Of a stretch of 64,000 nucleotides of DNA, positions 633-738 are shown piece by piece (the stretch's first letter is position 1; each line of letters starts with the position of its first letter). This DNA comes from Leucoraja erinacea (lineage: Eukaryota). The stretch lies in contig NC_073393.1 of assembly GCF_028641065.1 (NCBI RefSeq), positions 16,306,001 to 16,370,000 of the forward strand. Reading direction: 5' to 3'. The notes under the pieces were generated by a model that had not been told where the DNA came from, ran no database searches, and worked only from the letters and a program-made list of their open reading frames with translations. The position numbers and the translations under genes are program-made.

Positions 633-738
633 CTTTTATAAAACAGCAACTGACAGTGCGTCCCAATAACGGCACCAATCAGGATCAGGAGCACCAGGAA
701 GCCCAGAGCATGTCTAATGTGGAAGGCGAAAGCATTAA
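633..738 (-). CDS. Ig-superfamily receptor gene 1, transmembrane exon
   Basis: Acceptor ttatttctgcag|, donor AG|gtacgt. Phase 1 start fits the C1 exon. Reads VNAFAFHIRHALGFLVLLILIGAVIGTHCQLLFYKR. Confidence 0.85.

Follow-up and report, generated by a model that had tools for sequence, protein, structure and literature searches.

The SIRP ectodomain is V-C1-C1, with shorter SIRP forms also existing, and the TCR alpha and delta chains are V-C1 chains whose transmembrane (TM) Arg recruits CD3-zeta. In SIRP-alpha and SIRP-beta1, inhibitory and activating forms are paired and a single-exon V domain with a J-like strand is followed by C1, the activating form using a TM Lys with DAP12; TCR chains rearrange and carry an additional TM Lys. 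The activating receptors of the LRC (LILRA, NKp46, GPVI, Fc-alpha-R and OSCAR) have C2-type ectodomains, an Arg near the outer TM end and a short tail, and according to PMC6557307 their TM is defined by NxxR and an N-terminal DYT consensus, with C-terminal acidic residues as another feature of it. The NITRs of ray-finned fish, as characterized in a preprint (bioRxiv 10.1101/2021.06.11.448072), are clustered and paired, have V and J in one exon, occur in ITIM-tailed and Arg-TM forms, and are defined by a six-cysteine I domain. NKp30 (NCR3) also has a single-exon VJ, and its TM Arg, like that of NKp46, couples to zeta/gamma (PMC6514059). Shark VJ-C1 genes that do not rearrange have been described as UrIg and UrIg2 (PMC12227049, PMC10751288). 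Sharks and rays are reported to be without LRC genes (PMC4016189) and, in a statement cited in the NITR preprint, without NITR homologues, and their paired innate receptors have so far largely escaped identification.

The window analysed here, a stretch of 64,000 nucleotides from Leucoraja erinacea (contig NC_073393.1), contains two tandem minus-strand genes, each of the form leader-V-C1-TM:

633..738, minus strand: gene 1 transmembrane exon, 106 nt, phase 1 to 2 (translation, splice sites, alignment to family TMs)
713..715, minus strand: gene 1 Arg codon AGA, in the column where most ITIM-tailed members of the family have Gly
3127..3438, minus strand: gene 1 C1-set Ig exon, 312 nt (Pfam C1-set E 3.8e-11; splice sites)
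6888..7208, minus strand: gene 1 V exon, 321 nt, a single exon with a J-like C-terminal strand (Pfam V-set E 7.2e-7; 64% to stingray P0035)
7362..7416, minus strand: gene 1 leader exon, ATG at 7416, donor GC, not GT (tblastn with the nearest relatives' leader, E 3e-4)
15819..15837, minus strand: putative terminal coding exon of gene 2, one of several candidates (+6 residues, stop, AATAAA at the stop)
16470..16575, minus strand: gene 2 transmembrane exon, same sequence as that of gene 1, Arg codon at 16550-16552
16585..16802, no strand: assembly gap of 218 N between the gene 2 C1 and TM exons, with a TG microsatellite at the gene 1 counterpart
19059..19370, minus strand: gene 2 C1-set Ig exon (Pfam E 9.1e-11; AlphaFold2 mean pLDDT 89)
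23585..23905, minus strand: gene 2 V exon (Pfam V-set E 1.2e-7; 88% amino-acid identity to gene 1)
24017..24071, minus strand: gene 2 leader exon, canonical GT donor
24372..24460, minus strand: relic of a third V exon, a frameshifted fragment

Read on the minus strand, 633-738 gives VNAFAFHIRHALGFLVLLILIGAVIGTHCQLLFYK(R), within which the gene 1 TM reads ...HIRHALGFLVLLILIGAVI..., and the exon lies between a pyrimidine-rich CAG acceptor and a GTACGT donor. The preliminary description had reported an Arg-bearing TM exon identical in two paralogues, and this is borne out by the translation, the splice sites and the identity of the two exons at 106/106 nt. That identity is unremarkable and no evidence of selection, since the divergence of the flanking intron (11/632 nt between gene 1 and gene 2) gives a P of 0.16 for 0/106 differences. 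The V exons of the two genes differ at 20/321 nt and the C1 exons at 9/312 nt, with dN/dS near 1 for V (0.057/0.068, 19 changes) and 0.5 for C1, where changes are few, and all four exons are open with splice sites retained in both copies at about 3-6% divergence. A false haplotype duplication is disfavoured by this substitution divergence, by a 1.5-kb insertion in one copy and by differing 5' flanks, with the caveat that the two copies diverge less (1.5%) in the 3' block around the TM, which abuts the assembly gap.

Some other features of the window may be recorded here. The insertion (19671-21181, about 1.5 kb) lies in the V-C1 intron of gene 2, is missing from gene 1, and contains a 446-aa ORF resembling a LINE reverse transcriptase by eye. 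Both C1 exons (3127-3438 and 19059-19370) encode two extra Cys, one before the B-strand Cys and one near the exon end, which may be able to make a disulfide bond within or between chains. They also encode a His in the B-strand in place of the Leu of the family consensus. Elsewhere, 636 nt are duplicated in tandem at 53225-54495 (98.7% identity) and an imperfect palindrome of 135 nt (89% self-complementary) occupies 43032-43166.

When these genes are set against the described systems, SIRP-alpha (2wng) is the top PDB match to cover both V and C1 continuously (E 1.1e-29), and the single-exon V with a J-like strand, the C1 that follows and the pairing of inhibitory with activating forms are all SIRP-like. 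Antibody chains score equally high in the same PDB search, however, so SIRP orthology is not established by it. The window genes have one C1 where SIRP has two, and in their wider family the basic residue of the TM column is an outer Arg, with Lys in 0/85 rows, where activating SIRP uses Lys with DAP12; SIRP membership of the window genes is questionable. The family shares clustering, pairing, the single V-J exon and both tail and TM forms with the NITRs but has a C1-set domain with two invariant Cys in place of the I domain, and its Arg-bearing members share the outer Arg and short tail with LRC activating receptors, whereas the ectodomains of the window genes best fit Pfam V-set plus C1-set. 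UrIg2, a non-rearranging shark VJ-C1 gene among the top PDB matches, differs in having nine C1 domains, and NKp30 in having no C1; unlike the family described below, NKp30, TCR alpha/delta and UrIg/UrIg2 are not known to be accompanied by ITIM-bearing sister genes with common ectodomains. The window TM peptide had 0 matches at E<=10 against PDB sequences. A fold search with the model of catshark P0009 returned just antibody chains at about 20% identity, and the ESM Atlas generic V-set/C1-set clusters, so that neither separates these families.

The window V exon led to one catshark protein, this to 22 proteins, and a profile built from 18 of them gave 55 matches at E<=1e-20 among 7510 candidates, 54/55 of which come from named chimaera, sharks and rays. 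An exhaustive profile search, restricted to proteins of up to 500 aa with longer multi-domain matches excluded, added 54 proteins, of which the 15 that were checked are all chondrichthyan (15/15). In each species with a chromosome-level assembly, the members lie on contigs of a single length, which points to one receptor cluster per genome. The closest V relatives of the window genes are stingray P0035 and P0051, with an Arg TM, and Mobula P0030, with a Gly TM and two motifs (60-64%, clade support 99/98). The J-like end of the family V consensus is GNGTGSxLxV, with Ser at the first Gly in the window. Most members are automatically named SIRP-like by NCBI, and public names are inconsistent overall (SIRP-, tapasin-, B7H6-, MHC- and light-chain-like, and one "nitr1d"); the last is P0204, a little skate member called "novel immune-type receptor 1d" by NCBI despite its C1-like second domain. 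The same automatic names (SHPS1-like, tapasin-related, NCR3LG1-like) recur in a gene cluster on reedfish chromosome 12, at about 7.5-12.5 Mb, in supplementary material of PMC10751288, which, to judge by the gene names, is possibly a bony-fish counterpart. Our literature search found no paper describing the family, key subscription papers lying outside its reach.

Aligning the TMs of this family shows what kind of position the window Arg occupies. The candidate proteins numbered 122; after exclusion of 33 (30 lacking a TM, 3 lacking a C1), the remaining 89 gave 85 distinct TM rows, in which the column of the window Arg is Gly in 47, Arg in 19 and Lys in 0, the Arg rows ranging from chimaera to rays. 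An ITIM-like motif is missing in 16/19 Arg rows vs 22/66 others (Fisher p 1.3e-4), and median tail length is 28 aa vs 97.5 aa, statistics that rest on automatic gene models and count the isoforms P0035 and P0051 twice. The exceptions run both ways, with 3/19 Arg rows having an ITIM-like motif and 22/66 non-Arg rows being without one; in six further rows a basic residue stands a few columns off, and 0/6 of these have the motif. Arg rows turn up in many parts of the ectodomain tree, with 16 state changes, and across 13 independent pairs comparing Arg with the tail motif the median sign-test p is 0.016 (range 0.001-0.69); for tails <45 aa, a cut picked post hoc, it is 0.004. In the catshark, a sister pair with near-identical V and C1 domains is made up of P0009/P0026, which have Arg and a 7-aa tail, and P0025, which has Gly and a tail with a Tyr motif. 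Clustered genes with like ectodomains, in both ITIM-tailed and charged-TM short-tailed forms, are what define a paired family in PMC3533184, and all of these are found here. Since the Arg is linked to short tails that lack an ITIM, and since the catshark pair exists, the Arg form would be expected to work like an activating paired receptor.

Thus the initial reading of the Arg as marking an activating-type TM finds support at the family level, where the Arg column tracks the loss of an ITIM-type tail and sister pairs exist. The companion claim, that such a TM on a V-C1 ectodomain is an unusual combination, finds no support in that form: it recurs in 19/85 family TM rows and, because TCR alpha/delta share the arrangement, V-C1 with a TM Arg is not unprecedented. 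The consensus pattern given for the LRC-like TM fits just the window TM among 86 aligned and none of the family's Arg rows (0/19), so it is not a family signature; it is the Arg column itself that is conserved.

Nor is an origin from an LRC-like TM supported by the window sequence, which has F at R-3 and neither NxxR nor DYT, and which aligns best with stingray TMs of its own family with the Arg in register. The best score is against P0035, with Arg on Arg, one gap and z about 7, the window TM having a one-residue insertion relative to P0035; the best-of-family score was reached by 5/300 shape-preserving shuffles. Two types of Arg TM can be distinguished in the family: type A corresponds to the inhibitory TM with Gly changed to Arg, and type B has an acidic residue and a His at its end. 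Type B members (P0011, P0018, P0052, P0053, P0078, P0092, P0095 and P0130) have this acidic residue and His exactly 17 residues past the Arg, occur in chimaera and sharks on differing ectodomain subfamilies, and include one with NxxR (P0130). As a candidate for an old FcR-gamma/zeta-type module, type B is to be preferred over the window's type. In a TM-only tree of 39 columns, the AU test rejected one clade of all Arg TMs (p 0.006) and one of type A (p 0.025) and did not reject one of type B (p 0.81), which is weak support for repeated origin because the columns are few, better trees were missed and the groups were named post hoc. In the same tree the window TM fell close to type B, on a branch that is long and lacks support, which conflicts with its assignment to type A. 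On these alignments, the Arg likely has its origin inside the family and not in mammalian-type LRC receptors, probably arising by a one-base Gly-to-Arg change in the inhibitory-type TM and more than once.

The position of the Arg in the window copy is less typical. It had been placed at the outer membrane edge, and this is borderline: the best hydrophobic windows of 17, 19, 21 and 23 residues all begin after the Arg, which lies 3 residues ahead of the most hydrophobic 21-mer, whereas it falls inside the 21-mer in 16/18 Arg relatives. The first K/R/D/E after the window Arg comes at +26 vs a family median of +17, with a His already at +19, and the Arg has His on both sides. Hydropathy on its N-terminal side is 1.74, which we take as equal to the family median of 1.59, and the TM helix of the window copy could slide, putting the Arg at the interface.

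What follows the TM exon is predicted from the genomic sequence, as are the splicing, expression and short tail of both window genes. Neither tblastn nor a tail profile found a tail exon of the family anywhere in the window, whereas tblastn recovered the 19-aa leader at E 3e-4. For gene 2, 9/9 listed candidate acceptors within 2 kb past the TM, plus read-through, give tails of <=36 aa with no ITIM-like motif. A tail-like match at 27034-27057 proved to be LINE sequence. Positions 1-9 of the window begin exactly at an acceptor AG that matches the one of the candidate gene 2 terminal exon (15838), so the gene 1 tail would lie just beyond the window edge. Four RNA runs (1-25% of each), compared with 14400-26200 at 86% likeness, covered repeats and gave essentially no exon depth; as the reads match repeats mostly at <95% and seemingly come from another species, they are uninformative on expression.

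By analogy with known paired receptors, we consider it probable that the two genes are activating members in which the Arg of the outer TM forms a pair with the Asp of an ITAM dimer of the zeta/gamma type. The TM exon would then anchor two tandem leader-V(J)-C1-TM receptors of a cartilaginous-fish cluster, with the Arg in the outer third of the bilayer and in contact with an acidic residue in an ITAM adaptor, for which the CD3-zeta/FcR-gamma type is the likeliest choice. Activating copies would have been derived from inhibitory ones by Gly-to-Arg, as proposed for activating KIRs, and, by the logic of paired receptors, the inhibitory sister might recognize a self ligand, and the activating copy either a pathogen or an altered ligand. 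Several observations speak against this reading: the Arg of the window copy ahead of the best hydrophobic 21-mer, with its His neighbours and the late first K/R/D/E; the ending of the TM exon in phase 2; the GC leader donor of gene 1; the C1 B-strand His; the dN/dS values; the exceptions to the link between Arg and tail; the place of the window TM in the TM-only tree; and the failure of a 2014 screen to find FcR-gamma in shark genomes (PMC4016189). If the genes are activating but signal through DAP12 or DAP10, which we regard as unlikely, NKG2D, which pairs with DAP10 via Arg, would offer a precedent. So would fish NITRs, which bind adaptors such as Dap12 by intramembrane charge and include a predicted activating bowfin member with Arg (bioRxiv 10.1101/2021.06.11.448072), and a 2014 screen reported no FcR-gamma in shark genomes (PMC4016189), which may favour CD3-zeta among the zeta/gamma adaptors. 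Yet the basic residue is Arg in 19/19 rows and never Lys, whereas DAP12 partners are described as mostly having a central Lys (PMC6557307, PMC6514059, PMC3533184), and the Arg mostly lies 17-18 residues ahead of the cytoplasmic polar boundary, an outer-TM placement known for zeta/gamma partners.

A diverged or decaying copy, in which an inherited Arg now sits outside the bilayer and the products are non-signalling decoys or the genes are turning into pseudogenes, is about as likely as coupling to DAP12 or DAP10. It would account for the Arg outside the best 21-mer, the hydrophobic C-terminal extension, the neighbouring His and the TM insertion relative to P0035, and it can draw on the GC donor of gene 1, the C1 B-strand His, the V dN/dS near 1 and the broken third V fragment close by; the first three of these are compatible with relaxation, and the V ratio alternatively with diversifying selection. 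Against such decay stand four open exons and splice sites kept in both copies despite their divergence, a C1 that still folds with confidence (AlphaFold2 pLDDT 89) and a hydropathy before the Arg on par with the family's. Very improbable, and largely refuted, is an LRC-type NxxR module grafted onto a V-C1 ectodomain. Such a graft would be in keeping with an Arg placed close to the outer TM end and a helix rich in Leu and Gly after it, and unrelated Xenopus FCRL and SLAM-like families do reuse NxxR TMs (PMC2413239, PMC6557307), but NxxR occurs in just 1/19 family Arg rows and, like DYT, is missing from the window, the window TM shares homology with the uncharged TM of its own family, and the 2014 screen reported no LRC genes in sharks (PMC4016189).

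Taken alone, the TM exon is an ordinary activating-receptor feature, and its interest lies in where it leads. Behind it stands a multigene cluster that extends from chimaera to rays, is masked by automatic names and contains clear inhibitory/activating pairs built on a VJ-C1 frame like that of antigen receptors. We tentatively suggest, as a possibility that we would not yet call likely, that this cluster is the main germline NK/myeloid paired-receptor system of cartilaginous fish, standing in place of the LRC and the NITRs. Its members would be non-rearranging VJ-C1 receptors that engage CD3-zeta through a TCR-alpha-like TM Arg, with activating forms repeatedly remade by Gly-to-Arg at one TM column, and the older Arg-TM type of chimaera and sharks may keep the signalling mode of an antigen-receptor precursor or of a SIRP/NITR ancestor. 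In any case, the family offers a natural series of repeated inhibitory-to-activating switches, and with it concrete clones for adaptor and ligand work in the oldest jawed lineage.
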